Source: an uncultured Candidatus Binatia bacterium
GTDB lineage: Bacteria; Desulfobacterota; Binatia; UBA9968; JAJDTQ01
Assembly (NCBI GenBank): GCA_965242525.1
Contig: OZ251459.1
Location: forward strand, 2,720,001-2,784,000
Direction: 5' to 3'
Length of the DNA: 64,000 bases
Shown here piece after piece: positions 38,111-62,804 of this stretch. Every line of letters starts with the position of its first letter. Position 1 is the stretch's first letter. Under the pieces are notes generated by a model. The model ran no database searches. It had not been told where the DNA came from and saw nothing but the letters and a program-made list of their open reading frames with translations. Made by a program: the position numbers and the translations under genes.

Positions 38111-38223
38111 CGTCCCGTTGCGTTGCCCCCAGCTTGGTGATCCGTCTCCCTAATCAGGTGGCGAGGGGCGAACTCAGATCCGCACCGTCGTCCTTGTATG
38201 CTTCCCAGAATACCTTGGGCCGG

Positions 38224-38253
38224 TTGACAGCGCCCCAACCGTTTGTCTATACA
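38224..38253 (+). promoter_or_regulatory. Putative sigma70 promoter for the lipoprotein leader
   Basis: TTGACA-N18-TATACA; the predicted +1 (~38260) coincides with the start of the long inverted repeat. Confidence 0.5.
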
Positions 38254-38259
38254 GTGCAG

Positions 38260-38465: not shown

Positions 38466-38481
38466 CGAAAGGAGAGAGGGA

Positions 38482-39594: not shown

Positions 39595-39646
39595 ATGCTA
39601 TTTTTGGCTCTTCCGATTTTTGTGTGGGTAGGGTCTCACTGCCTAG

Positions 39647-39676
39647 CGTTCCCTCCCCCTCAAGGGGGAGGGAACG
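39647..39676. repeat. Perfect hairpin (REP-type 2 / possible bidirectional terminator) between convergent genes
   Basis: CGTTCCCTCCCCCT-CA-AGGGGGAGGGAACG. Confidence 0.65.
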
Positions 39677-39774
39677 GAGTTCTCCGCAATACCGAACCGA
39701 GGACGGCAAAGTCGGAATCAGATCTCGCCGCGTGTATAGGGAGTGTGGCAACCCACACGCAATCCTGAAATGCC

Positions 39775-42700
39775 CTATCTTTCTTCCAGAACGATCGGCA
39801 CATCGAATCCCCCTTCGACGCCAATCACGAAATCCAGCGACTTGAGCCCCCGGGCCTGCTTGGCGGCATCCGCACTGAAATCATGTTTCGGCGCGCCTTG
39901 CACGCGCCAAGCTCCAAAGCCTTGGTCAAGCAGAATGGTTATACTCCGGCCATCTCCAAGACGAAGTGCAAAGCTTCGGGCGTGGGGTAATTCCGATTTC
40001 CCGCGGATGTCGATCTGCGCATTCGGCAACAGTGCCTGGAGCACAGCATGGCGCATAGCGTCATCGGCAAAGGTATGGAAAATAGTCCATCCTTGTCGTT
40101 CAGGACTGAATATCCGCGCCGTCGATACGAACAGGTCCGTCTCTTCTGAGCCAGGCATCCTCCGAACTACCTCGAACATAAGTCGCAGAGCAAGAGGCGT
40201 CAGAAGGTAACGATCCGTGTAGGTCAGGGTTTGGATCTTGTATGTGCGGATCGCCGCAACCGTCAATGGGGACTCCTCGGCCAAGAGTTTCCAGAAGGTG
40301 CGACCGAATGAAGCAACTCGACCGTCGAGTCGTATGCCAAGCCGAATCAAGCGCGCATTTCCGCTGGAAAGTTCTACAAGCCGGCTGCTTGCCAAGGTTT
40401 TCGGTGCAGGTAGATCGGGTGAGGGTCCCTGAACTAGTGCTACCTCGGTGCCGCGGCCCCATTGAAGGCCTGGAATTGCATCCTTGTCATCGTGTGCAGC
40501 GATGGCGGTGTTTCCATTCGCGTTCTTGACTACAGCCACTATTGGGAAATCGTTCGCTCTCGGCAGATCAGGGACTTCGCCTAGAGTTGCATGGGTCGCC
40601 AACCGATGCAAATCGAGCCGTTGCGCCAAATCCATCGACCTGTTGACCAAGATGCGACTTTCTATTACGAGTTCAAGCTCTATCCCAGATTCTTTCAGCC
40701 GGGCGAAATGCTCAACGACCGGCCAAGCGGCAAGCTCCCATTCCGATGGGGAACCGTGCAGGTAGAGTCTGACTGCGGCAAGCGTCCCTGTCCATCTTCG
40801 TCGATCAAGCCATTCGATGAGCGGCAGGCCCAGAATAGTTGTATCTGGGCCGAATACTCGCATGGCCTCTGGAAGTTGGAGCCGGTCTCGAAGGGCTTGC
40901 ACGACATCCCTTCCGCCTGGCCGGTCGAGTAGTTCCTTTTCAAAGCTGAGGTCGGGACGCAGAACACAGGCCGGGCAACCATGTGTGCAATCCTCCGGAC
41001 AGGAAAGTCTTTCGAGAGCTTGTTCCAGACAAGCATTGAACCATTCCTGCTCTGACAATCGCAAAACGAGCCCCGCGCCCCCAGATGCACGGTCATAAAG
41101 GAAGGCGGATACCCGGTTCTCGCCACTTGGACCGGCCGAAAGACCAACGGCGACGCCGATCTCACGAGCCTCGGCCCCGAGCCGTCCGGCAAGTGCCTCG
41201 CGCAGTGCGGCGGCAAGCGCGAGTCCCTGATCCCGGCGAGTGCCGTTTGGTAGTTGAAGCTCGAATACATCGGTACGGGAGTCGTGAACGAGGCGAAGAT
41301 TTCGTTGGATCCGTTGCGGCTCGGTGTATCCTCCTGGACAGTAGCCGTGTGCCAATTTCATCTCTCGAGCTTCGGCCAGCGGAAAATGTTTTTGGATCTG
41401 GGATGGAAGTTGGGACCCCGGTCCCTCCTCGGTCTCGGCCTCGGCTCGTCCACAGGAAAGACACAGCGCATAGCCCTTACCCTTGAGTCCCGAGCCGAGT
41501 GTGATTACTTGTCCATCTGGGTCTGCACGTATCCGCCCTGCCTCGGGATCCGGCAATGCCCGCCACGGGGAGCCTGCTGCCGAGAGCCGAGGCATTTCAT
41601 AGATCGCGGGGCCAAGATTCTCGTATCCGGTGTGAGGAGCACGGCGACCAAGGAAACCCGCGGGCCGCAGGCAACGCTTCCAACCCCTTGCCGGTGTGTC
41701 GCATTGCGGGCAGACCGCAGGAACAGCACGCGCCAAGTCGAAGTAGCGGCAAGACGGACACTCCCAGAAGTCTTGCAGGTCTTCCAGGTTCGAGGTATCG
41801 GTCCTTGCTCCCCAAGCGGGGAAGACGCCCTCGGAGCGATGTACGAGACCATCCACTACGATCTCCGCTCCCGGTGCATACTCGCGGATCGCCACGTCGA
41901 GCGTACGGGAGGCACCCCCCCGGTACTCGCCGAAGGCGATTACACCGGCCGCCTCATCACGATGGTGGCCTGAGAGATGATCGAAGGCCACAACATCGAC
42001 CGGAAAGCCGTAGGACGGCGTAAACCCACGCCGGGCGAGTTCCCCCAGAAGAAACTCGCCTTTCATGCGGCGTGCCCGCATCTGAAAAGCCTTCTTCACC
42101 TCTGTCTCTCTTGCCGCTTCACGCCGGGCAAGAAGCTCTGAGTACTCGCTACGCCAGCGGCCCAGAATCCTTTCGAAAGCCTCAGCCGTCTCGGCCACGA
42201 GGTACGCAGAGGCTTTGCCTTCCAGTGCCGTACTGCGCGTCAGATGAGCGAGATTGGCTGCGAGTACATCGTTCCGGCCCCAGTCCCCTCGCAGGGCGTC
42301 CAGAAAATCGTTGGCCACAGATGCTGACGCCACAGGTGTGTCGGCTTCCTCTGTCGCTCCGAAGCAAGCGCCGGCCGACGCCTTCAGGTCAAAGCCGTCA
42401 GGTTGTTCCCGAAGGAACGCGGCGAGCAGCGCGGCATGGACATGACGAGCAACAAGCCGGGCGCTATCGAATCTTACGGCCGGCGCCGTGACAGGCGCTG
42501 AGAGGAGTCGCGTGGGTTTGTCGAAAACAATCTGGTCGAGCGGAAGATCCCGGCAGAACGTAACACCAAAAGTCCAAGGCTCTCTCCGTCGTCCGGCTCG
42601 GCCTGTCCGTTGCCGATAGTTGGACACCGAAGGCGGCACGTTGGCATTGACCACTATTTGGACATTCGGGATGTCCACCCCCATCTCCATCGTGGTAGAG

Positions 42701-45700
42701 CAGTTGAGCAGATTGATTCGCCCTTCTTTGAACCGTGTCTCGTAGTCGGCAAGCACGAGACGTTGGATCTGCGCCGAGTGTTCTTGTGCGCGAAGGAACG
42801 GTGCATAGATGGCGACGCGATCGTGAAGATCAGTCCAGAGACCCGCTTGGCGCAGACCTGCGATGACGGCATCGGTCTCGCACCAGCGCATCACCTCGTC
42901 TCGGTGGACGGGATCCAACCCGCCCGCATTGGCTGCGGGTGGGCGTGGCAGTTCGATGGGTGAAAGCAACCGGTTTGGATCGTAGGGTGACCGTCCCGCA
43001 GGTGAATACCCAAAGATCCGCCGAGTGATCGGACAGAGCCAACCCTGGTCGAGCCGCTCCACGGCTGCGTTCTTGAAATCGAGTTGAAAGACACCGCCGC
43101 CAACATCGTTGGCGGCCGTCGAGGCGATGAGGGACCAGAGAGATGCGAGTACCTCACCCGCTAGGTCCTGATCCGTCTTGTTGTCCCAATCCCCTCCAAT
43201 TAGCGCATAAATCAGACGATGTACTCGGGATGGGCGCCCGTGTCTTGGATTCGGGACAGGCCATGGCCGGCCGCCTACGGGGAGATCGGCCTGGTCGAGT
43301 CCGGGAGGATAGATGGAATTGAGATGCTGTCCTGAGCGTGGGCTTACAAACCGGATCATCCAGTCTGGCATGATCCGGGTTGCAAGCTGGGCGCGGAATA
43401 CGAAATCCACCGCGGCCAATGCGAGTCCGATCCATCCGTCGGCGTCGACTCCCACGTCATCGAGAATACGGGGTAATCGTGTGCGGGCTGTGTCTTCGAG
43501 CTTGGGGAATGACAGGCGCACGAGCCCCATCGTCTCGGCGTTGTTCTGCACCTTGGGACGTCGGAAGAGCTCACGGTAGAGGAACATTGTCGCGAGCTTG
43601 TCCGGCTCGTTGGCCATCTCGCGCCCGCCGAGTGCCCGTTCGCGCCAGACATCGGTGGCGAACTCGCGCAGCTCGGACTGCTGTGCGAATCGCTCTACCA
43701 ATTCAGTCCAGGGGATGGGTTTAGCATTGCCGGCAAGTTGCGCTTCGATATTTCGGATGTCTTCGGCGAATTCCGGATCGTTGAATTTGCGAAACTTCGC
43801 GAGCTTCCTTTCAAGGTTGGCACGGTCTGCGCCCTCTGGGCCGCGATTCTCTTGTGCGGCGTGGTAAAGGAATGCCCGTGTCAGGTTTCGTTCCGCATCC
43901 TGCTGAAGCTTTGCCGCCAATCTCGCGGTTCCCTGACGACTGTCGGAGAACGTGATCGCACGCCGCCCACCCATTGGCAGGCCAGCTTGGTCCAGCCGCT
44001 GGGCCAGAGATTCGATAAATGCCGGGACTGCTGTACCCATGAAGAAAGGCGGGCCGTACCGCTGCGGGACGAGCCTCGCGCGAGTCGATTCGGGACAGCA
44101 AGTGCGCGCCGATTCGTCCTCCTCCAGCGCAAGGCGCACCGAGCGCGCATCCTGTGGGGGCGCGTTGTCGAACACCGTCCCGTCATCGAGCTTGAGAAAG
44201 CGGTCATCGGAGTTGTTTCGTGCAGGAGACAGAACGACAGTGTCGCTCGCGATCGGGCCTTCATCCTCGATCTCTGTGTCAGGCTCGGCATCCACCGCAA
44301 AATCGTCCGTCCCGATGGTGCGTAGCGGCACGAGCCGTGCGGAGGCTCCGGCTTCGAGTCCGGCGAGTAGGTGTGGTGTGCCACATTCGTTGCAGGCGAA
44401 GAGCTCGAAGACCGGAGCGCCACACTCGCAGGTGTCGCGTTGCTTGAGCCAGACTGCGCCGAATCCCCAACCCGAACCATCGGCAGACAGTTCGGGATCT
44501 CGGTGCTGACAGGTTGTATCGACACAGACCCAGATCCCGCCTTGTGAACGGTGAAAGATGTGTGCCCGCCACGGCAGAAGCCGGGTCTTGGTCGTCGCGC
44601 ATTTCGCTCGGGCCGCCGCATCGAGCAAGGCTTGGGCTTCTGCTTTGCGTCTGACATCGGCAGAACCGAACAAGATCTTGGCCACTTCGGTGAGGGTAGC
44701 GCTCTGCTCCGATAATGCCTGTTTGAGGGTCCGAATACGTGGATGAGGCGCCAGAATCTCCCAGAGGGCAGTAGAATCGAGTTCTTCCATACCTCCCGGT
44801 TCAAGCGGTGTATCTTCCTGTGTCGGAGGCAGGTCGGGTTCCACCGTGCGCCCTTCGATCACCCGTACATGTCTCTCATCCAGACCGGCGAGGTCGGAGG
44901 TAAAACGCCTTAGCTTTCCTTCGGTTCCTTCACCCTCGCTGATCGTCGCCGAGGTTGCCATCAGCCGCACTTGGTCCGGCGCGACACCGAAGGCGGCACG
45001 TACCCGGCGGAGTAGAAGCGCCATCTCGGCTGCTTGCGCGCCGATGTAGCTATGCGCCTCGTCCAGCACGATCCAGCGCAAGAGTCCTTGCGACCGTTCC
45101 AGAATTGTGCGGTCTTGGGTACGCAAGAGCAGGTATTCCAGCATCGTGACGTTCGTAACAAGAATTGCAGGCGGGGTATCGCGGATCTCCCGCCGGTTGC
45201 CGACTTCGGCGGCGGCGAGCCTGCTGCGATCCGTCTCGCGGGGAGTCTCGGGTGTAAGACCATTGTAGAGTGCAAAGCTCATCCGGTTTTGCAACGTCTC
45301 CGTCCAGGCTGCGAGGCGCTCTCGCTGGCTCTCGATCAAGGCGTTGAGTGGATAGATCAAGATCGCGCGCACCCCAGTGAGCTTGCCCCTTGCGGAGTCG
45401 CGCAGCAGGTCATCCAGTATCGGGACCATGAAGCACTCGGTCTTGCCCGAGCCGGTGCCGGAGCTGACAAGACAGGACAGACCCTCCCGGGTTGCTTCCC
45501 AGGCGGCAAGCTGATGTGACCAAGGGCTACGGTCACGAGGCATCCGTTCCGTCCTTGCTCCATCCAGGGCTGTGACCAGATCGGGGTGCAGTAATCCCCC
45601 CGAAAGATCATCGAGACTGCAATCGGCAGATTCCCAAACGCGGGATGCCTCGAAGACCGGATCGGCCAGAAGTGAATCTTTCAGTCCCGGCTCGCTGGAA

Positions 45701-45819
45701 AGGCGACGCAACAGAGCCGCGTTCAGCGCGGGAGACGCGAGCCTGCCTCGCGCGATAACTGACGACGCCGCACGGGCGGATATACGGGAGAGCGTCTCGC
45801 CAAGATGTGAAGCGGTCAT
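39775..45819 (-). CDS. druE: Large DEAH-box helicase with DUF1998/MZB domain; Druantia DruE-like
   Basis: 2014 aa; SGTGSGKTE, YPLNAL, TNVTMLE, LDEAH, SAT, FSDSRQ, EHSAQ, STTMEMGVD, QRTGRAGR, C-terminal CPEDCTHGCPAC. Confidence 0.8.
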   Translation of the reverse strand: MTASHLGETLSRISARAASSVIARGRLASPALNAALLRRLSSEPGLKDSLLADPVFEASRVWESADCSLDDLSGGLLHPDLVTALDGARTERMPRDRSPWSHQLAAWEATREGLSCLVSSGTGSGKTECFMVPILDDLLRDSARGKLTGVRAILIYPLNALIESQRERLAAWTETLQNRMSFALYNGLTPETPRETDRSRLAAAEVGNRREIRDTPPAILVTNVTMLEYLLLRTQDRTILERSQGLLRWIVLDEAHSYIGAQAAEMALLLRRVRAAFGVAPDQVRLMATSATISEGEGTEGKLRRFTSDLAGLDERHVRVIEGRTVEPDLPPTQEDTPLEPGGMEELDSTALWEILAPHPRIRTLKQALSEQSATLTEVAKILFGSADVRRKAEAQALLDAAARAKCATTKTRLLPWRAHIFHRSQGGIWVCVDTTCQHRDPELSADGSGWGFGAVWLKQRDTCECGAPVFELFACNECGTPHLLAGLEAGASARLVPLRTIGTDDFAVDAEPDTEIEDEGPIASDTVVLSPARNNSDDRFLKLDDGTVFDNAPPQDARSVRLALEEDESARTCCPESTRARLVPQRYGPPFFMGTAVPAFIESLAQRLDQAGLPMGGRRAITFSDSRQGTARLAAKLQQDAERNLTRAFLYHAAQENRGPEGADRANLERKLAKFRKFNDPEFAEDIRNIEAQLAGNAKPIPWTELVERFAQQSELREFATDVWRERALGGREMANEPDKLATMFLYRELFRRPKVQNNAETMGLVRLSFPKLEDTARTRLPRILDDVGVDADGWIGLALAAVDFVFRAQLATRIMPDWMIRFVSPRSGQHLNSIYPPGLDQADLPVGGRPWPVPNPRHGRPSRVHRLIYALIGGDWDNKTDQDLAGEVLASLWSLIASTAANDVGGGVFQLDFKNAAVERLDQGWLCPITRRIFGYSPAGRSPYDPNRLLSPIELPRPPAANAGGLDPVHRDEVMRWCETDAVIAGLRQAGLWTDLHDRVAIYAPFLRAQEHSAQIQRLVLADYETRFKEGRINLLNCSTTMEMGVDIPNVQIVVNANVPPSVSNYRQRTGRAGRRREPWTFGVTFCRDLPLDQIVFDKPTRLLSAPVTAPAVRFDSARLVARHVHAALLAAFLREQPDGFDLKASAGACFGATEEADTPVASASVANDFLDALRGDWGRNDVLAANLAHLTRSTALEGKASAYLVAETAEAFERILGRWRSEYSELLARREAARETEVKKAFQMRARRMKGEFLLGELARRGFTPSYGFPVDVVAFDHLSGHHRDEAAGVIAFGEYRGGASRTLDVAIREYAPGAEIVVDGLVHRSEGVFPAWGARTDTSNLEDLQDFWECPSCRYFDLARAVPAVCPQCDTPARGWKRCLRPAGFLGRRAPHTGYENLGPAIYEMPRLSAAGSPWRALPDPEAGRIRADPDGQVITLGSGLKGKGYALCLSCGRAEAETEEGPGSQLPSQIQKHFPLAEAREMKLAHGYCPGGYTEPQRIQRNLRLVHDSRTDVFELQLPNGTRRDQGLALAAALREALAGRLGAEAREIGVAVGLSAGPSGENRVSAFLYDRASGGAGLVLRLSEQEWFNACLEQALERLSCPEDCTHGCPACVLRPDLSFEKELLDRPGGRDVVQALRDRLQLPEAMRVFGPDTTILGLPLIEWLDRRRWTGTLAAVRLYLHGSPSEWELAAWPVVEHFARLKESGIELELVIESRILVNRSMDLAQRLDLHRLATHATLGEVPDLPRANDFPIVAVVKNANGNTAIAAHDDKDAIPGLQWGRGTEVALVQGPSPDLPAPKTLASSRLVELSSGNARLIRLGIRLDGRVASFGRTFWKLLAEESPLTVAAIRTYKIQTLTYTDRYLLTPLALRLMFEVVRRMPGSEETDLFVSTARIFSPERQGWTIFHTFADDAMRHAVLQALLPNAQIDIRGKSELPHARSFALRLGDGRSITILLDQGFGAWRVQGAPKHDFSADAAKQARGLKSLDFVIGVEGGFDVPIVLEER

Positions 45820-48800
45820 GCATGAGCCTCCTTCGCAAAGAGAAGATGAAGAGCCGCGGGTAAGGCAGTGTCGAAATAGATGGGATCAACGAGGCGCAAG
45901 TTGATAAGGATCAACTTTTCCGGGACGCTCGGAGCGGCCCTTCTGCCTGCCGCCATCTCGGCGGCCACGAGAGGGGCATCGATCACCGATTGGGCGTAGG
46001 GATTGAAGCAGAGCTTCGCGGGGCGGTGGAGCGCTTCAAGACCCTGTACACCGGACGGCAAGCGGTCGAAGCGTCGAACCGCATCCTGCGCGCTTTCAGT
46101 CAGACGATCTCCGGGGTTGGGGAGCAATAGCGGCTTCAGCATTTCCTGTAGCTCGGGGGAAAGAATGAACCGGTAGAACAGATCGGCCTCCATCAGTGCC
46201 CACACAAAATGCCCGGACAACTCTGGCATGATTGTCGATATCTGACCGATCCGTTTGACGAGGCCACGATCCGCCTCGTCTTCCAATTCCTGTGCCTCGA
46301 AGAACGGTGATAGCTTTGCCAGTATGCGTTTGCGATCAGCCTGCACTGCTTCGGTAAAATCGGTTACCGGCACCGTTGGCCAGAAGATTGGAGCAGCCGT
46401 GTCCAGAGCTCGGATCTCCCACAGGTTAGAATAAGGGTGAATGCGTAAAGCCATAGAAATCGCAGCTTTCGGTACTTGGGCTAACGCCTGTACTTCATCG
46501 AGTACTCCGGCATCACCTCTCTGCCCCGCGGCCGTGATTAGATGCGATAACCGCTCCCATTCAGGATCCTCCGGGGTAGAGACCAGTCGACGCCATTCCT
46601 CCGCGTAGATCTCGATCCGTTCGTCACGGGATATTTGTGGTGTCGGACGCGGACTCCAGACGACGGCACGCTGAACCCGTCCTTCGAGACATGGTTGGAT
46701 CAGCCAAGGTCCACCTGTATCGCCAAGTAGCGAATGGAGGGAGGCAGGTGAGGACCCGGAATCGTCACGCAACCTTCCGGGGGCGCCCATATCGACTGCA
46801 TGGAACGTAAAGGTCTGGCTTTTGCACAGTTGACTTGCCAAGGTCGTTTCAGGTGTGATCGAAGCATCTCGACCAAGACCAACGCGCAAGAATCCGTCTT
46901 CGATCACTGTCCGCTCGTGATAACGTCGGACCTCTAATCGCCTGCTTTCGTCGCCGCTGACTACCAGGGACAGATTCACCTGTGCGTCGGGTCCGCCTTG
47001 AGCCAACATCGCTTCGATCAAGGGGCGATGGGCGGTAAGCGATCCTTCCCCCGCGACCGGTAGAGCAATTGCACGCCGTCCCTTTAGCTGTAGCTGGAGA
47101 TCGCCACGCGATGTTTCCGGCACGACCACCCGCCATCCATAAAGCCCCTCGACAGATATCGGCCGATTGTCGAGAAGCCGTTCCCCCTCCGGGTCAAGGA
47201 TCATACCGCTTCGAGCCGGCCAAGGAGTCTGAAGATTGAGCGCGGCGCCGGTCACCGGTTCGGACAGCCTGAGGTCGATCAGGCCCGGAGCCATACCTTG
47301 CGTTTTCAGAGACAATTTCACAGCGCCGCCGACAACGTCATCTCTTGTTTCGACTCCACCAGCCCGCATGGCGACGCGCCACTCGCTTTCGAGTCCTTCA
47401 GCTTCGAGGGTAACTTGCCCTGGACTTGCCTCTCGCAGTTCGAAATGTGTGTCTTCGGGAATTCGGAAAAGCTGAAAACTTGCCAAGGTAGCGCCTTGTC
47501 GCACCCATTCGACGATTTCGCTGAAGAGAAGCTGCCCGCGCGTTCGTTGAAGTTCGTGCTCTGGAATTCGGTATAACCCGGATGCGCCGATCTGTCCGAA
47601 GAAGACTATTTTGCCTCGGTAAAGTGGCGCGTCTCTCTCAAGACGCCATCCACGCAGGATCTTGCCAGATACCGTAAACCGTGCTTCAGGTGCTTCGTCC
47701 TCGGAGTCTGTCTCGATCCGATAGTGCCTTTTGCCAAGTTCGAGGCTGCCTTTTCCTGAGATACGCCAGAGAAACCCACCAGGCGCGATTTCAGGTTCTT
47801 CAAGCCTCAGGCCGGTATCAGTCTCGGGATCGACATCCGGAGACGTCAAGAGCCAAAGGCAAGCCGCCCGTGTCTTCCCACCACTCGACAGGGACGTCAA
47901 CCGCTGGGCTGCGGTGCCTTCGGTCCGATCTACGCTTCTCCAAAAGCTTGGCGCTTCCTCCGGAGCGGGAACTCCCGGGTCTATCACAGCCTCTCCTTTC
48001 ATCCGGCCGTCGGCGAAGGCTGTCAGTGTGAATGGTTCCTGTGGATGAAATGGAAACGGCACCCCTCCAGGTGCCCCAAAGCGGCGGAGCCGCCAGCCCC
48101 TACCCTCAGGTGCGGCACTGTAGGTGAGTCCGTCGATTGACTTTGTCCCTGTGGGCAGCAGTCGAAGTCTGAGTTCCTCGGCATCCGGGAACAACGACGC
48201 GGGCAGCCACCCGTCGTCATTGAGAGCCAAGTAACCATGCCAAGCCCCCGTTTCGTCACGCCGTAGTTCACGCTTGCACAATGGTCCCGGCACAGCAGAG
48301 GGAGATTCACGTTCGGCGCGAAGCGCGGGATGTATGAGGGTTTCGGCGATTTTCGGTGTCATGCGCAGGGGAAGGCATGATATCCAGCCGTCCCTGTGCT
48401 TGTTCAGCCAACATTCGGTCGCCGCCTCCGGCAGATCGGCGGGCAAATCCGCGCGAAGCGCAGCGAGAGAAAGTGCGAGCCCGGCCAGAAGTCGAGCGAT
48501 ATCAGGGTATTGGAAGGTTTGAGGCAGTCGCACGACCCAGCGTGCTGCGATCCGATCCGACCACGACTCTGCAGCCACCCCACCTTCAGCCTCGATCTCC
48601 TTCAGAAGTCCCAACACAACATCGCGATAGAGTCCCGGGCTGCTTAGAAGCGCCTCCGGAATTCCGCCTTCGGCCATGAGGCTGTAGAGAAACATACGGG
48701 TACCCGCATCTGATACCCGGATCTCACGGTCCCACCATGCGAGACCTTTTTCGGTAAGTTGTCTGCCAAAACCCTGATCCTCGGGGCAGTCAATGGCACT

Positions 48801-49034
48801 GAAGACAAACTCCCAGGTCAGCGGGCCACCGGAGAATTTCGCTCGTATGTGCTCGGCGGCCCAGAATACGAACCCTGCAGCCACGAAGTCTCTTCCCGAA
48901 CCAGCGCCGACGTTGGACCTCAGAGCCTCTGCCAGCTCGGCGAAGTTTTCCGGCGAACAGTCATAAGCGTGGAGAGGCCGGCCATCGGGTTCCGTCAATC
49001 CGCACTGGTTGATGATTTTGGATACCGCTTCCAT
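45816..49034 (-). CDS. druH: STY4851/ECs_5259-family protein; Druantia type III DruH-like
   Basis: 1072 aa; N-terminus PDGRPLHAYDC...FVFWAAE...LTW...GLAWW...FLYSLMAEGGIP matches my recollection of this family; 4-nt overlap with the druE start. Confidence 0.7.
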   Translation of the reverse strand: MEAVSKIINQCGLTEPDGRPLHAYDCSPENFAELAEALRSNVGAGSGRDFVAAGFVFWAAEHIRAKFSGGPLTWEFVFSAIDCPEDQGFGRQLTEKGLAWWDREIRVSDAGTRMFLYSLMAEGGIPEALLSSPGLYRDVVLGLLKEIEAEGGVAAESWSDRIAARWVVRLPQTFQYPDIARLLAGLALSLAALRADLPADLPEAATECWLNKHRDGWISCLPLRMTPKIAETLIHPALRAERESPSAVPGPLCKRELRRDETGAWHGYLALNDDGWLPASLFPDAEELRLRLLPTGTKSIDGLTYSAAPEGRGWRLRRFGAPGGVPFPFHPQEPFTLTAFADGRMKGEAVIDPGVPAPEEAPSFWRSVDRTEGTAAQRLTSLSSGGKTRAACLWLLTSPDVDPETDTGLRLEEPEIAPGGFLWRISGKGSLELGKRHYRIETDSEDEAPEARFTVSGKILRGWRLERDAPLYRGKIVFFGQIGASGLYRIPEHELQRTRGQLLFSEIVEWVRQGATLASFQLFRIPEDTHFELREASPGQVTLEAEGLESEWRVAMRAGGVETRDDVVGGAVKLSLKTQGMAPGLIDLRLSEPVTGAALNLQTPWPARSGMILDPEGERLLDNRPISVEGLYGWRVVVPETSRGDLQLQLKGRRAIALPVAGEGSLTAHRPLIEAMLAQGGPDAQVNLSLVVSGDESRRLEVRRYHERTVIEDGFLRVGLGRDASITPETTLASQLCKSQTFTFHAVDMGAPGRLRDDSGSSPASLHSLLGDTGGPWLIQPCLEGRVQRAVVWSPRPTPQISRDERIEIYAEEWRRLVSTPEDPEWERLSHLITAAGQRGDAGVLDEVQALAQVPKAAISMALRIHPYSNLWEIRALDTAAPIFWPTVPVTDFTEAVQADRKRILAKLSPFFEAQELEDEADRGLVKRIGQISTIMPELSGHFVWALMEADLFYRFILSPELQEMLKPLLLPNPGDRLTESAQDAVRRFDRLPSGVQGLEALHRPAKLCFNPYAQSVIDAPLVAAEMAAGRRAAPSVPEKLILINLRLVDPIYFDTALPAALHLLFAKEAHA

Positions 49035-49083
49035 GTGCCGGTCACCATTCAGAAACCGTCAGTGGTTTCGGGGATTCATCTAT

Positions 49084-49192
49084 GGAAACCCTGAACAATT
49101 CCGGCTTGAACTCCATCTCCCTGTGGGAAAGCGCGTCCTTCGACTTCGCTTCGCTACGCTCAGGACGAACGGGGTAATTGTTCAGGGTTTCC
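49084..49192. mobile_element. MITE-like element with perfect 17-bp terminal inverted repeats and one REP unit
   Basis: GGAAACCCTGAACAATT (49084-49100) ... AATTGTTCAGGGTTTCC (49176-49192), an exact reverse complement; internal reverse REP unit at ~49131-49174. Confidence 0.8.
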
Positions 49193-49300
49193 TTTACTCG
49201 ATTCTTCCAGGAAGATCCGTTTTGCAAATGCCTGAAGCTCGACCTTGGACCGTCGCAAGGGTGGGAAGATGGTGTAGGCTCGAAGGATTCCGGTCAACCG

Positions 49301-49528
49301 TCATCGGTCGAGATAGCTGGCCTTTGGTCCGGGTTCGGGTTCGCTGTCCTGGGGATCGGCGACCGGATGGCGATCTTCGTAGGGGAGGCCAAGCCGGTAT
49401 CCCGGTTTCCTGGCTCGCGGTAGATTGGCAAGCATTGCCTGGTTTTTCTCGAAGATCTCCTTCACGTGCGGGTTTGTTTCTAGAAGTGCATCGATGTCCA
49501 GCTTCTTCTTTGCCACTTTTACCCCCAT
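49301..49528 (-). CDS. Small hypothetical protein (75 aa) coupled to the protease gene
   Basis: ATG overlaps the last codons of the upstream protease ORF; same strand and same low-GC composition. Confidence 0.55.
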   Translation of the reverse strand: MGVKVAKKKLDIDALLETNPHVKEIFEKNQAMLANLPRARKPGYRLGLPYEDRHPVADPQDSEPEPGPKASYLDR

Positions 49529-50400
49529 TTTCGCCCGTCGAAGATTTTGCGGGTTTGAACCACACTCTGAAATTGCCTCTTGGTAGAGTAGTCCAGTGCA
49601 AGCTCGTGATAATTACGGACGGCGACTCTTAACGGACGGCTTTTTCCGAAGTCATCGATATGCAGTTTCAGTTCGCGCCGGAGGCGTTGCATATTGATTC
49701 CAATCCCGTGCGAATTCCATTTACGTGTATCGTTCAGCTTGTTTGCGATTTCGTTGGCCCGTTCTTTTCTCATCTGTTCCGTCACGGGCAACTTTCGCGT
49801 TTCTGTTTCCGTCCAATTCCTGAATTTGTATCTCGCCAACCACTCCTCCAGGAGTGCTACGGACAAGTCCCGGGCCTGACCATACGCGTACAACTCGCCT
49901 TGGTCGAAACTGAGCAATATCTGCAACTCCGCCGCGCCTGCCTGGCCGCGGTTGGCTTTATCCATGAGGTCTTCGTACCTCACGAGGTATCCAAGTGCGG
50001 GTACAAGCTGCCGCCCATCTTGACTGGGGACTTGTGGATCGACAGGGCCGAGCACCGAGTAGTAATCCATCCATATCGCATTTCCGGACAAGGCAAGGAT
50101 GGTCCCGGCAGACATGGCATGACTGGGTATGAGGAAATCGACTTCGCGATAGTGATGCCTCAGGGCGTCTGAAATGCGGCGAGCATCCTCGGCAAAACCA
50201 CCGGAAGTCTCGAGCACGAAAATGAGCTTCCTGCGCCGCTTGTCAAAATTTTCCACGGCATCTCGAATCCGGTCGTCGGCGCCAAACGCAATTTGCCCGC
50301 GATAGAAGAGGCAATCCGCGCCCATCTCGGTTTCGATTTTTACGAGCAAATCGGCCAAGTGCGCCTCTATGAGGAGATTGGCGTTCGCTGGAGGCGTCAT
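49519..50400 (-). CDS. SDH-family ClpP/crotonase-fold serine protease
   Basis: LETSGG, PSHAMSAGTILAL (catalytic Ser), LGPVDPQ, WNSHG; 293 aa from the ATG at 50400. Confidence 0.8.
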   Translation of the reverse strand: MTPPANANLLIEAHLADLLVKIETEMGADCLFYRGQIAFGADDRIRDAVENFDKRRRKLIFVLETSGGFAEDARRISDALRHHYREVDFLIPSHAMSAGTILALSGNAIWMDYYSVLGPVDPQVPSQDGRQLVPALGYLVRYEDLMDKANRGQAGAAELQILLSFDQGELYAYGQARDLSVALLEEWLARYKFRNWTETETRKLPVTEQMRKERANEIANKLNDTRKWNSHGIGINMQRLRRELKLHIDDFGKSRPLRVAVRNYHELALDYSTKRQFQSVVQTRKIFDGRKWG

Positions 50401-50447
50401 TTTGCGACCGGTGTGGGAACAACGCGCCGGTGGTCCCGAAGCGCCAG

Positions 50448-51548
50448 CTACGCGGCCCCCCGTCTTTCCAGGATGTGGGCCATGTCCACCTTGGCGCCGG
50501 AGCGTCCGCAGGCGTCCACGAACAGGTCGATGACGTCGTCGTCCTCGTCTTCGTGCTCGATCTGCCAGCCGCCCTGGTTGAGGGGCACGTCGGACTGGAT
50601 CTTGCCCGGCGCCAGCTTGAACATGCGGCTGAGCATCTTGAGGGCGAGGTAGCGGGCGGGTTGGGGGCCGGAGTTGAAGTGCTGGTGGAACCAGCCTTCC
50701 GGAGGCACCACCAGGGAACCGGGCTTCCAGACGAACTGCCGCTTCTCCTCGCCTTCCGGCCACATGAGCGAATAGCCTTCGCCGGAAAGGATCATCACGT
50801 GGGCGCCGGGTCCGTGGCGGTGCGCCTTCTTGTACCGTCCCACCGGGAACTCCGAGACGTGCGCTCCCATGTGGCTCGCCACCAGCTCGAAGAAGACCGT
50901 GCGGCTTCCCTTGCCCCGCTCCTCCCATGCGATGGGCTCGATGTGGGCCACGTCGGGGATGAAATTGGTCTCCAGCACCCGGTCGTTGTACAGGCGCGCG
51001 TGGCCGCGGAAGTCCCGGTGGTCGTCGAAGCGGTCCCTGAAGGCGTAGGGGTTGTTCATGACGAAGTCTTCGTTGTGGAAGATGTTGTGGACCAGCGGCG
51101 CGTTGGTGACCCCCAGGAGCTTGGCCTCCCGGTCGCCCTGGCCGTTGAAGTGCTGGTAGGTGGCGTTGACGGGGATGGCGAACAGGCTTCCCTCCTGCCA
51201 CTCGAAGCTCTGGCCCTTGCCGCCGCCCTGCCACAGGGTGGTGGCGCCCCGGCCCGAGAGCACATAGACCAGCTCCTCGTACAGGTGCTTCTCCGGGTTG
51301 AGGCCCTTGCCCGGCGGGATGGACACCACGAAGGCGTCGTCCAGGTAGCCGGCCCCTTCCAGGTTGATATAGACGCCGTGGCCGCCCTTGCGGTCCCACC
51401 ACTTCATCGGCGCCTCCTTGAGGTCTTCGACGAAGTAGCCCCGGACGACGTCCACCCCCTGGGCCTCCACCCAGCGGTCGTAGGGCGTGTCCATCACTTC
51501 GGCGTTCCGGTCCACGCGCTCGAAGTTGCCGAGACTTTCGATCTTCAT
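50448..51548 (-). CDS. Bicupin protein (gentisate 1,2-dioxygenase-like fold)
   Basis: EKHLYEELVYVLSGRG...YQHFN and KAHRHGPGAH...WFHQHFN cupin motifs. Confidence 0.8.
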   Translation of the reverse strand: MKIESLGNFERVDRNAEVMDTPYDRWVEAQGVDVVRGYFVEDLKEAPMKWWDRKGGHGVYINLEGAGYLDDAFVVSIPPGKGLNPEKHLYEELVYVLSGRGATTLWQGGGKGQSFEWQEGSLFAIPVNATYQHFNGQGDREAKLLGVTNAPLVHNIFHNEDFVMNNPYAFRDRFDDHRDFRGHARLYNDRVLETNFIPDVAHIEPIAWEERGKGSRTVFFELVASHMGAHVSEFPVGRYKKAHRHGPGAHVMILSGEGYSLMWPEGEEKRQFVWKPGSLVVPPEGWFHQHFNSGPQPARYLALKMLSRMFKLAPGKIQSDVPLNQGGWQIEHEDEDDDVIDLFVDACGRSGAKVDMAHILERRGAA

Positions 51549-56747: not shown

Positions 56748-57464
56748 ATGCCCGTCTGGGACGACATCCTGACCGACCGTGACAAGGAAGTGTTCGCCCT
56801 TTCCGGTTACGGCCAGCACGCGGGGTTCGGCCAGCGTCCGGCCGTGCTCGTCATCGACGTGAACTACAACTTCGTCGGCGACCGGCGGGAGCCGATCCTC
56901 GAATCCGTCAAACGCTTCCGCAACAGTTGCGGCGAGGAGGGATGGGTCGGGGTCGATCACACGGTGGAGCTCCTGGCGGAGGCCCGGAAGAAGCGGCTGC
57001 CGATCTTCTATACCACCGGCCACGGCGAGGAAGAGTCCGTCGCCTTCGGCCGCTGGCACGGCAAGAACCGGCGGGGCGCCGAGGACTTTTCCGAGCTGGC
57101 CCGGAAGGGCAACGAGATCGTCGCGGAGATCGCCCCCCGGCAGGGCGACGTGGTGGTGCGCAAGCAGAAGCCCAGCGCCTTCTTCGGCACCGCGCTCATG
57201 AGCATGTTGAACGAGTTGCACGCGGACAGCGTGCTGGTGACCGGGACCACCACCAGCGGCTGTGTCCGGGCCACGGTCATCGACGCGTTCTCCTACAACT
57301 TCGGCGTCAGCGTGGTGGAGGAATGCACCTTCGACCGGGGCCAAGCCTCCCACAAGATCAACCTCTTCGACATGAACATGAAGTACGCGGACGTGGTGTC
57401 GCTGGAGGAGACCGTGGATTACATCCGGGGCCTGCCCGACAACCTCTTCGCTCCGCCGCTCTGA
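56748..57464 (+). CDS. Isochorismatase/cysteine hydrolase (N-carbamoylsarcosine/maleamate amidase-like)
   Basis: GFGQRPAVLVID, KPSAFFGT, GTTTSGCVRATVIDA. Confidence 0.87.
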   Translation: MPVWDDILTDRDKEVFALSGYGQHAGFGQRPAVLVIDVNYNFVGDRREPILESVKRFRNSCGEEGWVGVDHTVELLAEARKKRLPIFYTTGHGEEESVAFGRWHGKNRRGAEDFSELARKGNEIVAEIAPRQGDVVVRKQKPSAFFGTALMSMLNELHADSVLVTGTTTSGCVRATVIDAFSYNFGVSVVEECTFDRGQASHKINLFDMNMKYADVVSLEETVDYIRGLPDNLFAPPL

Positions 57465-57478
57465 GCGCCGCGCGCAGC

Positions 57479-58390
57479 ATGAGCGGGGTCGCACGCCAGA
57501 TCGAGGGGTTCGGGGACTACCTGCGCGACGGAGCGCGGTTCTCCCCCCACTCGGTCAAGGGCTACCTGACCGACCTGGAGGGGTTCCGCCAGCACCTGGA
57601 GCGGGACGGCCCCGAAGAGGACGGGGCCGCGGCCTTGCGAGCGGTGGACGCGCGTTGCATCCGGGGCTACCTGAAGACCCTCTACGAAAGCCGCAAGAAG
57701 AGCACCATCGGGCGCAAGCTGGCCGCCCTCAAGGGCTTCTTTCGCTACCTCCTGCGCGAGGGGGTCATCCACAGGGACCCGCTGGTGGGTTTCGCCACTC
57801 CCAAGCAGGAGGCCCCGCTGGTGAAGTTCCTGTCCGTGGACGAGGCTTTCCGGGTCCTGGGCTGCATGCCGGAAGAGGGGGTCCTCCCGGCCCGGGACCG
57901 CGCGGTCATGGAGGTGCTGTACTCGTCCGGCGTCCGGGTCAGCGAGCTCGTGGGCCTCGACTGGCGCGACGTGGACTTCCCGCTGGGCGTGGTCAAGGTC
58001 CTGGGCAAGGGGTCCAGGGAGCGCATCGTGCCCGTCGGCGAAGCGGCCCTGGCGGCCCTGCGGGACTACGCGGACCACCAGCGCACCCGGTGGCGCCGCA
58101 CGGCCCGGGGGGAAGAGCCGGTGTTCCTGAACCGTTCGGGCAACCGGATCACCACCCGGAGCGTGGCCCGCATCGTGGAGAAGTACCTGACCCTGGCCGG
58201 CGTCCCCGTGCGCATGGGACCCCACGGCCTGCGCCACACCTTCGCCACCCACCTGCTCAACGCCGGCGCAGACCTGCGCTCCATCCAGGAACTCTTGGGC
58301 CACGCGAGCCTCTCCACCACCCAGCGCTACACCCACGTCAACCTCGACCAGCTCACCGCGGTGTACGACCGCGCCCACCCCAGGGCGTGA
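57479..58390 (+). CDS. xerC: Tyrosine recombinase XerC
   Basis: RDRA..E.LYSSGVRVSEL, GKGSRER, HGLRHTFATHLL, QELLGHASLSTTQRYTHV, YDRAHPRA; sits before hslVU. Confidence 0.9.
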   Translation: MSGVARQIEGFGDYLRDGARFSPHSVKGYLTDLEGFRQHLERDGPEEDGAAALRAVDARCIRGYLKTLYESRKKSTIGRKLAALKGFFRYLLREGVIHRDPLVGFATPKQEAPLVKFLSVDEAFRVLGCMPEEGVLPARDRAVMEVLYSSGVRVSELVGLDWRDVDFPLGVVKVLGKGSRERIVPVGEAALAALRDYADHQRTRWRRTARGEEPVFLNRSGNRITTRSVARIVEKYLTLAGVPVRMGPHGLRHTFATHLLNAGADLRSIQELLGHASLSTTQRYTHVNLDQLTAVYDRAHPRA

Positions 58391-58595
58391 GGCCGTGAGA
58401 AGCCGCCGCAAGGCCGCGTAGTCTTCTTTCCCCGCCATCTTCGGCCTTTCACGCCGGCGCTTGGCTTTCCTTGCCGGGAAATATGGGCTATCCGTAGATT
58501 GATCTGTGCCGCCTGCCCTACGTAACCAAGCAGGTGCATGGAGTCGGGCGGGTTCCGCGAAATCGCGTGGGGTACACAGTCCTGACAGGCAACTC

Positions 58596-59480
58596 ATGGC
58601 AAGAGCAAAAGCGAAACTAGGCCCGGTGGTAGCGACACTCAACCTCAAGGGCGGAGTCGGCAAGACTACGGTGAGCGCTCACGTCTTTCGAGTCTTCTGG
58701 GAGAAATTCAGAATCGCTACCCTGCTCGTGGACTTTGATCCACAGTTCAATCTCACCCAGACTCTCTTCGACCAGCGACGCTATGAGCGAGAACTCAAAG
58801 CGAAGCGCACCGTCATGGCGGTAATGGAGGCGCCTCGGTCCACAAGCCTGTTCCAAGTCAACACTGCAAGCGCTCCGCCTCCGGACCCTATCGACGTCAG
58901 TACACGGTTCTGGTACATGACGAACAACCATGACATCGACCTCCGTGTGGTCCCGGGCGATTTCGAACTCGTGAAGTACAGCTTGATGGACGACAACAAG
59001 CAACTGACCAAGGTGCAGAACAGGTTTCTGAAATTCATCAAGAAATGTCGCCAGGGCGGGCGACTCACGGTCATCGACTGCAACCCGAGCAGTTCGTTCC
59101 TGACCATGTGTGCCCTTCAGGCGTGTACTCATTTGCTCGTGCCGGTAAGACCGGACCGTTATTCCATTCTTGGCCTGAATATACTGGAACAGTTCATCGC
59201 AAGGATTCTTTCCGTCGGATCCGTCCCGAAGAAAATGATACTGCTGAACGGCGTGCCTCGGCAGCGTTACGATCGCACCATAGAGAACGAGCTGCGCTCG
59301 CATCCCGAGTTGGGAGCGGCGACGCTCAAGTCTCGGCTTCATCAATCGAACCTATTGCTGGCCAAGCCTGGATTTACGGGTTTTGCCACCGACAAGCAAG
59401 TGCCTTACAAGTATCGCTTGAAGAACGAAATTTCGGCAGTCGCTACGGAATTGGCTGAATTGATGGGCGTTGCGTCATGA
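58596..59480 (+). CDS. ParA/Soj-family ATPase (cassette gene 1)
   Basis: Deviant Walker A NLKGGVGKTT, DFDPQFNLT, VIDCNP, LLVPVRPD; lower GC than the flanks. Confidence 0.85.
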   Translation: MARAKAKLGPVVATLNLKGGVGKTTVSAHVFRVFWEKFRIATLLVDFDPQFNLTQTLFDQRRYERELKAKRTVMAVMEAPRSTSLFQVNTASAPPPDPIDVSTRFWYMTNNHDIDLRVVPGDFELVKYSLMDDNKQLTKVQNRFLKFIKKCRQGGRLTVIDCNPSSSFLTMCALQACTHLLVPVRPDRYSILGLNILEQFIARILSVGSVPKKMILLNGVPRQRYDRTIENELRSHPELGAATLKSRLHQSNLLLAKPGFTGFATDKQVPYKYRLKNEISAVATELAELMGVAS

Positions 59481-59995
59481 AAAACAATACAAAGCGTTGG
59501 CTCTACCTCCTTGCCGGATCGGGCCTTTCCGCAAACGAGATCCGTGACCTTTGCAGTTGGCTTGCGACGGACGCAGCCGATGACATCGTAGTTTCGGTTC
59601 TCGAATTGCGTAAACGAGAGTTGCATATGGTAGCTCTAGGAGAACACGTTCCCGGCATGTCCGGTGAAGGCGCACGGCGAGCAGGCACGGGCAAGAGCGG
59701 CAACGACGTTGCGGACGAAATCGATCTGATCCTGAGAAAGGAAGCCAAGCTGTCGGCGCGAGCCGCCGCGGAACATCTTGCACACGAGCTGGAGAAGGAG
59801 CTTCGCACGTCATCCCCCGCGACCTCGGACATCCCGAATATACCTCTTTACTCGAAGGAAGCGTTCAAAACCTATCTGTCCAAGCTGCTTCGACTTACGT
59901 CGCCTCGGATGTTGCTGCATCTGGCCCACCGTATCCGCGATCATGTGGCTCCAAGACCAGCGATGGCATGGCCCCTGCATGTCAGGGACAAGTGA
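59477..59995 (+). CDS. Hypothetical alpha-helical protein (cassette gene 2)
   Basis: 172 aa; ATGA overlap with gene 1 and TGATG overlap with gene 3. Confidence 0.7.
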   Translation: MKNNTKRWLYLLAGSGLSANEIRDLCSWLATDAADDIVVSVLELRKRELHMVALGEHVPGMSGEGARRAGTGKSGNDVADEIDLILRKEAKLSARAAAEHLAHELEKELRTSSPATSDIPNIPLYSKEAFKTYLSKLLRLTSPRMLLHLAHRIRDHVAPRPAMAWPLHVRDK

Positions 59996-60708
59996 TGCCT
60001 GACGACTTCCAGCACCAAGTCGACGACCTTGCGGCGTCGGTAGCGGCCCACGTCAAGGCAAACCGCGATGAGTTCTGCCGGCGCGTTTCCGAGGAGGCGA
60101 ATTGTCTGCTCGCCTGGTTGGAGTACCTGCGGACGTCGGAGGCAACCGGCGTAGCCGATGCGCTGTTGCATGGAGTTCAAGGCGCCATCATCGAAGCGGC
60201 CGGTTGTCTCACGCTTGGTCTCGTCAGGCCGGCGCTGTCGTCTCTCAGGTTGCAAGTGGACATGACGCTAAGTTGGATCTACTTCAAGGACCACGAGGTG
60301 GAGTGGGACCATCTTCGGGATACCGGGAAAGGATTTCAATCGAAGAGCGGCGTGTGGAAGTACGTTTCAGAGCATCATCCGCGGTTCGAAACGAGATTCG
60401 GACTGCTGGAGCAGGTCAAGTCGCGCAGGGAAGCGGACCCTTACCGGCTTCTGTCGGCCCACATACACGGACAGACCGACTTTACCGCGCCGACGATTGG
60501 CCCGTTGAGCGGGCTCGTCGCGGAAAGACGCCTCTGTGACGAGTGTGTGGAACTCCAAGGGGAAGTCTCGGAATATCTGAGTGATTTCCTGCTGTCGGCA
60601 TACGGCGACAAATGGGCGTCTCTTCCTCCGTGTGCGCGGGACGAGCTTGAAAGCAGGCTTGGACTCGACCAAAGGGCTGCGTTCTTCGCGTCCTCGCATG
60701 GCAGGTAG
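59995..60708 (+). CDS. Putative HEPN-like all-helical protein (cassette gene 3)
   Basis: IIEAA...[10 protein letters not shown]...IYF and [10 protein letters not shown] (Rx4H / Y-xx-LS-xx-H), a pattern typical of HEPN-superfamily RNases. Confidence 0.6.
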
Positions 60709-60830
60709 TCAACCCGGGGCCTGCCAAGTCCGCGGTTTCGTGTTACAGTGGCGGATCGTCCCGGTTGGCCGCGGACGGTCCCCTGACGGGGAGCGGCAGT
60801 GGCGGGGGCCTTGGGAAGCGGGTTCGGACC

Positions 60831-61361
60831 ATGTTTCATGCAACCACCATCCTTGCGGTGCGGCACGGGGGCCGGGTCGTGGTCGCGGGGGACGGCCAGG
60901 TGAGCCTCGGCGACACCGCGCTGAAGCACACGGCCCACAAGGTGCGGAAGCTCTACGGCGACCGTGTGATCGCCGGGTTCGCAGGCGCCACCGCGGACGC
61001 GTTCACGCTGTTCGAGAAGTTCGAGGGCAAGCTCGAACAGCACGGCGGGGTCTTCAAGCGGGCCGCGGTGGAGTTGGCCAAGGATTGGCGCACGGACCGG
61101 GTGCTGCGGCGGTTGGAGGCCCTCATGATCGTGGCCGACGCGGAGAACTCGCTGGTGGTGTCGGGCAACGGCGACGTGGTGGAGCCGGACGACGGCGTCA
61201 TCGCCATCGGCTCGGGCGGCAACTATGCGCTTGCGGCGGCGCGGGCTTTGGTCCATCATAGCCCGCTCGACGCCCGGGCCATCGCCGAAGAGTCCATGAA
61301 GGTGGCCGCGGCCATCTGCGTCTATACGAACGACAACCTGACCATCGAGGAGTTGCCCTGA
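60831..61361 (+). CDS. hslV: ATP-dependent protease peptidase subunit HslV
   Basis: [38 protein letters not shown]. Confidence 0.97.
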
Positions 61362-61403
61362 CCCCGGCGTCCGCGCGCGCCGCGGCGTCTCGAACCGGAG
61401 CCG

Positions 61404-62804
<1,401 letters not shown>

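Follow-up and report, generated by a model that had tools for sequence, protein, structure and literature searches.

The window analysed here is a stretch of 64,000 nucleotides from an uncultured Candidatus Binatia bacterium (contig OZ251459.1), and our subject is a cassette of three plus-strand open reading frames (ORFs), here called g1, g2 and g3, that lies in it between a xerC-type recombinase gene and hslV (Table 1). The three genes encode a ParA/MinD-type ATPase, a helical middle protein and an all-helical third protein, and we consider below whether they form an anti-phage defence system. The length of 294 amino acids (aa) given for g1 is counted from an ATG codon, and its homologues begin at the matching position. 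A first-pass annotation of this DNA, made by a model from the letters alone, had described three translationally coupled frames on one strand, lower in GC content than their surroundings, that interrupt a xerC-hslV-hslU-argB-argD run, and this description is borne out in all its parts: the overlapping stop and start codons can be read directly, the flanking genes are those named, and the composition differs as stated.

Table 1. Features of the three-gene cassette, its borders and the second low-GC island of the window (window coordinates)
Feature	Position	Strand	Description and basis
xerC-type recombinase gene	~57428-58390		upstream flank
Leader	58391..58595	+	xerC stop to g1 start; GC drops from 0.72 to 0.57 here
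g1	58596..59480	+	ParA/MinD-type deviant-Walker-A ATPase, 294 aa (ORF, Pfam)
g1 stop / g2 start overlap	59477-59480		ATGA
g2	59477..59995	+	helical protein without known family, 172 aa (ORF, model)
g2 stop / g3 start overlap	59993-59997		TGATG
g3	59995..60708	+	all-helical protein, 237 aa (ORF, model)
Spacer	60709..60830	+	g3 stop to hslV start; composition back at host level
hslV	60831-61361		downstream flank
Second low-GC island	~37200-51500		GC 0.56-0.62 (window mean 0.66)
Large ORF, 370 aa	38482-39594	+	no PDB sequence match
DruE-like helicase, 2014 aa	39775-45819	-	E 6.7e-257 to PDB 9tu7_Y
DruH-like protein, 1072 aa	45816-49034	-	E 1.8e-9 to PDB 9tud_A
Large ORF, 627 aa	49519-51402	-	no PDB sequence match

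The GC content is 0.54-0.60 over 58400-60600 and 0.65-0.72 on either side, and the GC content at third codon positions (GC3) is 0.67, 0.61 and 0.71 in g1, g2 and g3, respectively, compared with 0.81-0.97 in eight flanking genes. The upstream flank is a XerC-type recombinase (Phage_integrase, 2.4e-46, plus SAM_1) whose gene has the composition of the host, and no mobility gene accompanies the cassette in the window; further upstream are genes for an isochorismatase-family protein, CoxG, TctC and a lipid A acyltransferase, and downstream HslV is followed by HslU, ArgB and ArgD. The operon promoter presumably lies in the leader, where the number of sigma-70-like sites is 0 (0.7 +/- 1.0 in shuffles); the promoter and terminator scan did not rise above shuffles, and the spacer after g3 has no terminator-like site. 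There is no Rfam match in 57000-62000, no tRNA gene in the whole window and no repeat array near the cassette, where we found just short two-copy repeats at chance level. An exact 12-nucleotide direct repeat, CCGGGGCCTGCC, at 57425-57436 and 60714-60725 brackets xerC plus the cassette; we rejected it as an insertion scar and give it no weight, because in 4.2 kb of such composition chance alone should yield about two matches of this kind (our estimate).

A scan of one genome per species yielded 21 related loci from Pseudomonadota (alpha, beta and gamma), Myxococcota, Acidobacteriota, Spirochaetota, Chloroflexota and Verrucomicrobiota; the cassette family is thinly but widely spread. By tblastn, g3 is immediately preceded by a ParA gene in 19 of the 21 (the exceptions are L001, described below, and L013, which is cut by a contig end), and g2 was found in nine; ORF calling finds a middle frame of 147-235 aa in 20 of the 21, mostly with 4-nucleotide overlaps to g1. 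One gene is split by a frameshift in each of L003, L010 and L016, all three of which are metagenome-assembled genomes (MAGs). Among 16 cassettes used to compare divergence (L001, L003, L010, L013, L016 and L019 were omitted as incomplete or frameshifted), mean pairwise identity is 47% for g1, 26% for g2 and 38% for g3, and the distance matrices of the three genes vary together (Mantel r 0.77, 0.79 and 0.66; 0 of 5000 permutations as high). The three-gene order recurs in 20 of the 21 loci, spread over at least seven phyla and more often than chance would give, which the first-pass annotation had put forward as something to look for, and the comparison shows that the three genes have been inherited and transferred as one unit. 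The cassettes of Sulfuritalea (Betaproteobacteria) and a member of the Pyrinomonadaceae (Acidobacteriota) are mutual nearest neighbours, with 78, 58 and 69% identity in g1, g2 and g3; such nearest neighbours in different phyla, together with the GC3 deficit in the window, indicate that the cassette was horizontally acquired. A tblastn search with g3 against 72,556 plasmids and 50,697 phages gave no match, and by this absence from both collections the cassette is not a plasmid or phage gene set.

The g1 protein is the most conserved of the three, with a mean column identity of 57% among 17 cassette ParAs. It matches Pfam AAA_31 (2.2e-20) and CbiA (1.4e-10) and the ParA-like PHROG 164 (8.7e-25). 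Three stretches are invariant in all 17, the deviant Walker A motif (K18, G19-T24), D46/D48-P-Q-x-N and D161-C-N-P-S; the invariant positions are N16, K18, G19-T24, D46, D48, P49, Q50, N52 and D161-S165, so by sequence the ATPase retains all of its catalytic motifs. It falls under every NCBIfam equivalog cut-off for partition ParA/RepA proteins (best 63.3 bits, where NF041546 demands 180), and the closest plasmid ParA is 34% identical. In a tree of 25 ParA rows the 17 ParAs of the window's family form one group (support 83/86), within which the window ParA pairs with that of a Vicinamibacterales locus (64% identity; support 100/97).

ParABS and type Ib plasmid partition loci likewise begin with a ParA-type ATPase of some 290 aa and continue with a small protein. 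The window cassette differs from these in having no ParB, ParG or ribbon-helix-helix (RHH) partner and no parS array, in having a conserved third gene and in being absent from plasmids; the partition ParAs with which it was compared (L026 and L029, from Frigoriglobus and Rhizobium) are members of ordinary ParA-ParB and RepA-RepB pairs. Pfam and NCBIfam searches found no ParB-like protein, and no centromere-binding partner (ParB, ParG or RepB) is recognizable by family or fold in g2 or g3. This agrees with the earlier description of g1 as a ParA-family ATPase with neither ParB nor a parS-like array nearby, and, with the NCBIfam score and the lack of parS or iteron repeats, it sets the cassette apart from plasmid partition loci.

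The middle protein is the least conserved. Its model (predicted local distance difference test, pLDDT, 84.2) has a three-helix N-terminal domain (residues 2-53), a disordered linker (57-71) and a four-helix C-terminal domain (75-157). Searches of Pfam, NCBIfam, PADLOC and PHROGs assign it to no family, be it ParB, RHH or another DNA-binding one; sequences in the PDB gave just two weak matches (E 1.1 and 1.8), and the model has no fold neighbour there. In a language-model atlas its recognition was below the mark, and a DUF3038 cluster at 0.93 amounts to no more than a lead. There are 39 detectable relatives, and 30 sequences have near-invariant positions at M1, R7, L86, A97, P123, L147, A150, R154, W165 and L167, R7 and W165 lying close to the N- and C-terminal ends, respectively. 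In a Chloroflexota MAG (L019, 501-1205) the middle gene is longer, 235 aa, and by alignment the segment at the start of the C-terminal domain seems to be present in an additional copy.

The third protein is confidently modelled (pLDDT 92.7; predicted template modelling score, pTM, 0.89) as 12 helices and no strand, and the all-helical character, the Rx4H motif (in residues 150-159) and the LRLQVD helix (residues 84-89) that had been read from its sequence are all present. A word-index search found 329 relatives, of which every named one is a "hypothetical protein", and an exhaustive profile search yielded 292 representatives at 50% identity, nearly all of which are single, unfused proteins about 230 aa long, so that fusions are rare. 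In 219 full-length sequences R85 and H158, which are 73 residues apart, are conserved in all 219, H100 and E103 in 218, S154 and W41 in 216, and Y150 and E67 in 212, and position 89 is always D or E, so that the LRLQVD helix holds two of the invariant residues (R85 and D89). The grouping of R-x3-D/E, H-x2-E and S-x3-H on three helices suggests a candidate active site, and g3 is presumed to be an enzymatic effector. It has no family match in Pfam, NCBIfam, PADLOC or PHROGs, nothing usable was found in the PDB with the sequence or its profile, the best match of the model in the viral BFVD has E 0.12, and a word-index search with the alignment of the distant g3 branch (A3) returned seven matches, none with a Pfam domain.

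The first-pass annotation took g3 for a HEPN RNase on the strength of its Rx4H motif, and here it did not fare well. The two residues of that motif, R151 and H156, are kept in only 148 and 183 of the 219 sequences, the arginine is not conserved in the distant branch, and the invariant residues lie elsewhere. The Foldseek comparison that the annotation had proposed gave no PDB match below E 0.2; the two matches of highest probability are both HEPN proteins, 1ufb_A (E 0.67, probability 0.92, template modelling (TM) score 0.56 on the target, 146 columns) and 8xeh_D (E 1.0, probability 0.66), and both are weak and cover about 60% of the model. No HEPN family profile in Pfam, NCBIfam or PADLOC matches g3, and none appeared in scans of 98 relatives. 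The specific argument from Rx4H is refuted by these sequence comparisons, and we treat a HEPN identity as unproven because Rx4H is not the conserved core and the fold matches are weak and partial.

The known system most like the cassette is DS-15 (code AAA1), one of the validated E. coli systems of DefensePredictor (Science 2026, PMC13092281). According to tables S6-S8 of that paper its overlapping genes encode a "MinD ATPase" of 281 aa, an unannotated protein of 132 aa and a DUF6988 protein of 221 aa (accessions WP_001619161.1 + WP_060581740.1 / WP_032247022.1 + WP_000957441.1), the third of which, DS-15C, was assigned to DUF6988 by its authors' HHpred analysis (0.94). Its effect on plating, as the negative log of the efficiency of plating (EOP), is 2.70 for Bas1, 1.70 for Bas3 and 0.56 for Bas63 (PMC13092281). 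The name "DS-15" occurs 0 times in the main text of the paper, which gives no mechanism for it; a ParA/MinD ATPase with two small proteins is already in the literature, though only as table and figure entries of PMC13092281. We found no other ParA-based defence system in the literature. The earlier remark that the combination is not recognised as a named system is thus not fully accurate: the window family is absent from PADLOC 2.0.0 (2023), where, as in Pfam and NCBIfam, g2 and g3 receive no assignment, but the DS-15 entries of PMC13092281 describe the same architecture in a system that protects E. coli.

A tblastn search of plasmids with the window ParA led to an E. coli record that carries a close homologue of DS-15 (L022, NZ_CP148393.1). 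DS-15 itself is present in NZ_CP006636.1 (L023), where the accessions of the first and third proteins are those of PMC13092281. A third variant is found in a lambdoid prophage region of NZ_CP025847.1 (L024), with genes of 276, 168 and 231 aa and a 4-nucleotide overlap (WP_001399639.1 / WP_000130123.1 / WP_032190252.1); these accessions are absent from the readable supplementary tables of PMC13092281. E. coli thus carries at least three strongly diverged ParA three-gene cassettes, and a search with the L022 DNA found 201 of 5426 complete E. coli genomes that match the ParA part of one of them. The layout also occurs in mobile elements of Firmicutes: genes for a ParA-like protein and then for proteins of about 135 and 250 aa abut or overlap in the Lactococcus temperate phage PLg-TB25 (L030, 2492-4489) and in the Clostridium tetani plasmid NZ_AP026810.1 (L031, 1975-4034).

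DS-15 and the window cassette have several features in common: three genes that overlap on one strand, match in order and are comparable in length (281/132/221 and 294/172/237 aa), a first gene for a MinD/ParA deviant-Walker-A ATPase with a DPQFN-x-TQ stretch common to both, an all-helical third protein and a genomic context that is mobile or defence-related. R-S-x-x-E and Y-x3-[S/C]-x3-H fall in the same columns of the two third proteins, but in an hhalign alignment that is not significant. They differ in that DS-15C is assigned to DUF6988 and g3 to no Pfam family, in that H100 and E103, invariant in the g3 family, are absent from the E. coli proteins, and in that the middle genes have no detectable sequence relation. 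The window ParA is 29% identical to the L022 copy of DS-15A (over 202 aa, E 7e-19) and to the L024 ParA (E 2e-23), and the latter and DS-15A share 38% identity (E 3e-42); despite this likeness of their ParAs, L023 and L024 have third genes that BLASTP cannot align (E 7.2).

The third protein of L024 lies nearer to g3. When a hidden Markov model (HMM) of 219 g3-family members was run on each external third protein and on 300 shuffles of it, L024C scored 26.9 bits and its relative L025C 17.2 bits, with 0 of 300 shuffles as high in either case (shuffle maxima 4.0 and 11.6); L031C scored 14.5 bits, also with 0 of 300, and stands above its shuffles with both this HMM and that of the distant branch. 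L022C scored 5.2 bits (2 of 300 as high), and L030C 2.5 bits (1 of 300), rising above its shuffles with the distant-branch HMM only (8.8 bits, 0 of 300). In hhalign comparisons the L024C/L025C pair aligns with the distant g3 branch (A3) at a probability of 68% (E 4.7e-5, 193 columns), with the core g3 alignment (A1) at 3.4% (E 0.013, 158 columns) and with the DS-15C pair at 11% (E 0.0028, 74 columns). G75, P79, R85, D/E89, Y150, L153, H156 and H158 of g3 are aligned in L024C and L025C; on the other hand S154 is replaced by Cys, the H100/E103 pair is missing, the ParA is just 29% identical and the middle gene is not detectably related. The L024 third gene is thus demonstrably a distant homologue of g3, and the window and L024-type cassettes belong to one diverged family. 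DS-15 we regard as an architectural sister whose common descent with the window cassette is plausible; the signal for direct homology of g3 and DS-15C is marginal, and an indirect chain runs from the g3 family to L024C and from the L024C/L025C pair to DS-15C.

A further possible relative is DUF5677 (PF18928), which according to HHpred results in table S5 of PMC13092281 is the C-terminal domain of the Aditi protein DitA. The language-model neighbour clusters of g3 contain DUF6988 in 17-39% of their members and DUF5677 in 12-20%. Collinear sub-threshold matches to DUF5677 occur in 14 of 99 g3-family members (none of 37 core members, 7 of 20 distant members and 7 of 42 further members), the best having E 6.4e-4 and 20.3 bits; the window g3 has no match and none of the 99 reaches the cut-off of 27.1 bits. 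Aditi differs in having two genes, neither of them for a ParA, and in the larger size and two-domain build of DitA, and a literature search for the mechanism of DitA/DitB found no relevant paper.

The conservation of the three genes as a unit, the genes that surround them and the validated analogue DS-15 together favour, by a little over even chances in our estimation, the view that the cassette is an anti-phage defence system of the DS-15 architectural kind, and the defence role that the first-pass annotation had proposed as a candidate fits all three. As to the surroundings, 162 flanking ORFs of 110 aa or more, chosen greedily within 6 kb at the 21 loci, were scanned against Pfam and PADLOC, and ten of the 21 loci have a specific PADLOC defence neighbour within 6 kb; this is a raw count and is suggestive only, because there is no matched control. 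The window, too, has defence genes near the cassette, homologues of DruE and DruH 9.6 kb upstream of it. A number of observations weigh against a defence role or against the kinship with DS-15. The other 11 of the 21 loci have no recognised defence neighbour, and in the window the immediate neighbours of the cassette are housekeeping genes. Family scans found no recognised nuclease, toxin or other effector domain in g1, g2 or g3. The window ParA is no nearer to DS-15A (29% identity) than to ordinary plasmid ParAs (up to 34%), and the ParA tree, with its long branches, neither shows nor rejects a cassette clade against three partition ParAs (approximately unbiased, AU, test p 0.224). Of the other two proteins, g3 has a family HMM that gives DS-15C only 4.7 bits (2 of 300 shuffles as high), and the DS-15C pair aligns in hhalign with the core g3 alignment at a probability of 0.1% (E 0.43, 16 columns) and with the distant branch at 0.2% (E 0.38, 120 columns); g2 resembles none of the middle genes in the E. 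coli cassettes to a detectable degree (for DS-15B, hhalign E 0.36 and an HMM score of 2.1 bits, with 26 of 300 shuffles as high). Lastly, L025, the relative of L024, is carried by a 5.8-kb Plesiomonas plasmid, p11184, a location that would also fit a role in stability.

This last observation bears on the possibility that the cassette is a non-immune positioning or stability module, in which the ATPase and g2 as adaptor position or segregate a cargo, be it g3 or the DNA element that carries the genes. ParA/MinD positioning systems generally comprise an ATPase, a small adaptor with a basic N-terminal residue and a third protein, and the partly disordered g2 with its linker and conserved R7 matches this layout. 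We nevertheless judge such a module unlikely, since a DNA-binding family in g2 and centromere-like repeats were both sought without success, g3 is absent from the plasmid collection, the spread across phyla is patchy with defence genes beside ten of the loci, the similarly built DS-15 protects against phage, and the invariant R, H, E and S residues of g3 suggest an enzyme and not passive cargo.

Toxin-based explanations are in our view less probable still. The one that the first-pass annotation had in mind, in which g3 is a HEPN RNase toxin acting through Rx4H, gated by the ParA-like sensor and neutralised by g2 as antitoxin, can point to the R151-x4-H156 of the window g3, to its all-helical fold and to 1ufb_A and 8xeh_D at the head of the fold matches; the variability of both motif residues in the family and the absence of the arginine from the distant branch, fold matches that have E above 0.6 and span some three-fifths of the model, and the empty HEPN profile scans and PDB profile search make it rather improbable. 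Selfish maintenance, with the cassette as a toxin-antitoxin-like addiction module that stabilises its genomic islet and has no anti-phage role, would suit a small, transferred and tightly coupled operon, and resolvase, integrase and transposase genes and prophages are indeed among the neighbours of the cassettes. Yet three genes, one of them for a conserved ATPase, exceed the needs of an addiction pair, the window cassette has no mobility gene of its own beside a xerC of host composition, and the DS-15 analogue lowers phage plating; we give this explanation the least credence of all.

If the cassette is a defence system of the DS-15 kind, its parts can be given tentative roles. ParA/MinD ATPases dimerise in dependence on ATP and, as dimers, attach to a surface until the N-terminal basic residue of a partner resets them. 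By analogy g1 would be the sensor or gate, switched by ATP-dependent dimerisation and perhaps attached to the nucleoid; g2 would link it to g3 through its conserved N-terminus with R7 and its flexible linker; and g3 would be the effector enzyme, using R85-D/E89, H100-E103 and S154-H158 and not a canonical HEPN Rx4-6H site. Infection would alter the state of the ATPase, g3 would be released or activated, and the phage or the infected cell would be stopped. A bolder version, which we hold to be a long shot, is that the ParA protein would be a switch for immunity that monitors the condition of the nucleoid or incoming DNA, its DNA-bound ATP dimer holding g2 and g3 inactive until takeover by the phage (through nucleoid degradation, loss of ATP or a phage protein) releases g3, and that g3 would found a new enzyme superfamily (R-x3-D/E, H-x2-E, S-x3-H) with diverged members in DS-15C (DUF6988) and Aditi DitA (DUF5677).

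ParA/MinD ATPases are spatial organisers of DNA and of protein cargo, and their role in immunity has so far rested on one validated and mechanistically unexplained E. coli system, DS-15. The present findings show that the architecture is not confined to E. coli and belongs to a much larger cross-phylum family, with those 292 representatives at 50% identity, that combines a strongly conserved ATPase, a fast-evolving middle protein and a third protein with a clear candidate active site. The window family is set apart from DS-15 by its middle gene, by the additional residue pair H100/E103 and by the great breadth of taxa in which it occurs. The window family, DUF6988/DS-15 and DUF5677/Aditi, all three orphans as domains or systems, may be linked; were the bolder version true, three orphan defence systems would have a common effector and the ParA/MinD switch would join the bacterial immune sensors, and should the defence role fail, the cassette would be a new kind of ParA-based module.

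The individual neighbourhoods are varied. L016 (4595-8748), from a Vicinamibacterales MAG, is the closest relative of the window cassette in the genome collection; its g3 is the gene split by the frameshift, and it has a DUF1016/PDC-S02 protein on one side and a type I restriction specificity subunit (HsdS) on the other. L004 has PDC-M68/ABC-3C directly upstream together with a SIR2-like gene, and L006 has PD-T7-1 directly upstream together with an integrase. A methylase with an Mrr domain is found at L009, a DUF6602 nuclease with transposases at L010, an Old/AriA-like ATPase at L011, a protein resembling the DpnII/MboI restriction endonucleases at L015, and a methylase, PDC-S67 and a CBASS cyclase with its 2TM effector at L018; the methylase of L012 lies within a prophage, beside portal and terminase genes. 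L001 (5452-6640, a Pseudomonadales MAG) adjoins the Wadjet gene JetC and consists of a g3 remnant only (residues 35-235), with no ParA or middle gene; it is probably a decayed cassette. Several matches were not counted as defence: ABC-transporter ATPases that match mad3/AriA (L004:6691 and L005:2596), UvrB matching PbeA and a cold-shock domain (both L009), a sigma-54 activator matching RtcR (L011), a luciferase-like oxidoreductase (L003) and a generic S-adenosylmethionine (SAM) methyltransferase matching mad2 (L017).

The window itself contains a second and larger low-GC island, which holds the DruH/DruE pair, like that of type III Druantia, 9.6 kb upstream of the cassette (Table 1); the 627-aa and 370-aa ORFs may be further parts of this island. 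The Pseudomonas cassette L018 (912-4055), which belongs to the window's family, and DS-15 at L023 (2633-5321) both adjoin SOS-response peptidase (SRAP) and UmuC/DUF4113-type genes or their remnants, a site that may be a common insertion hotspot of the two.

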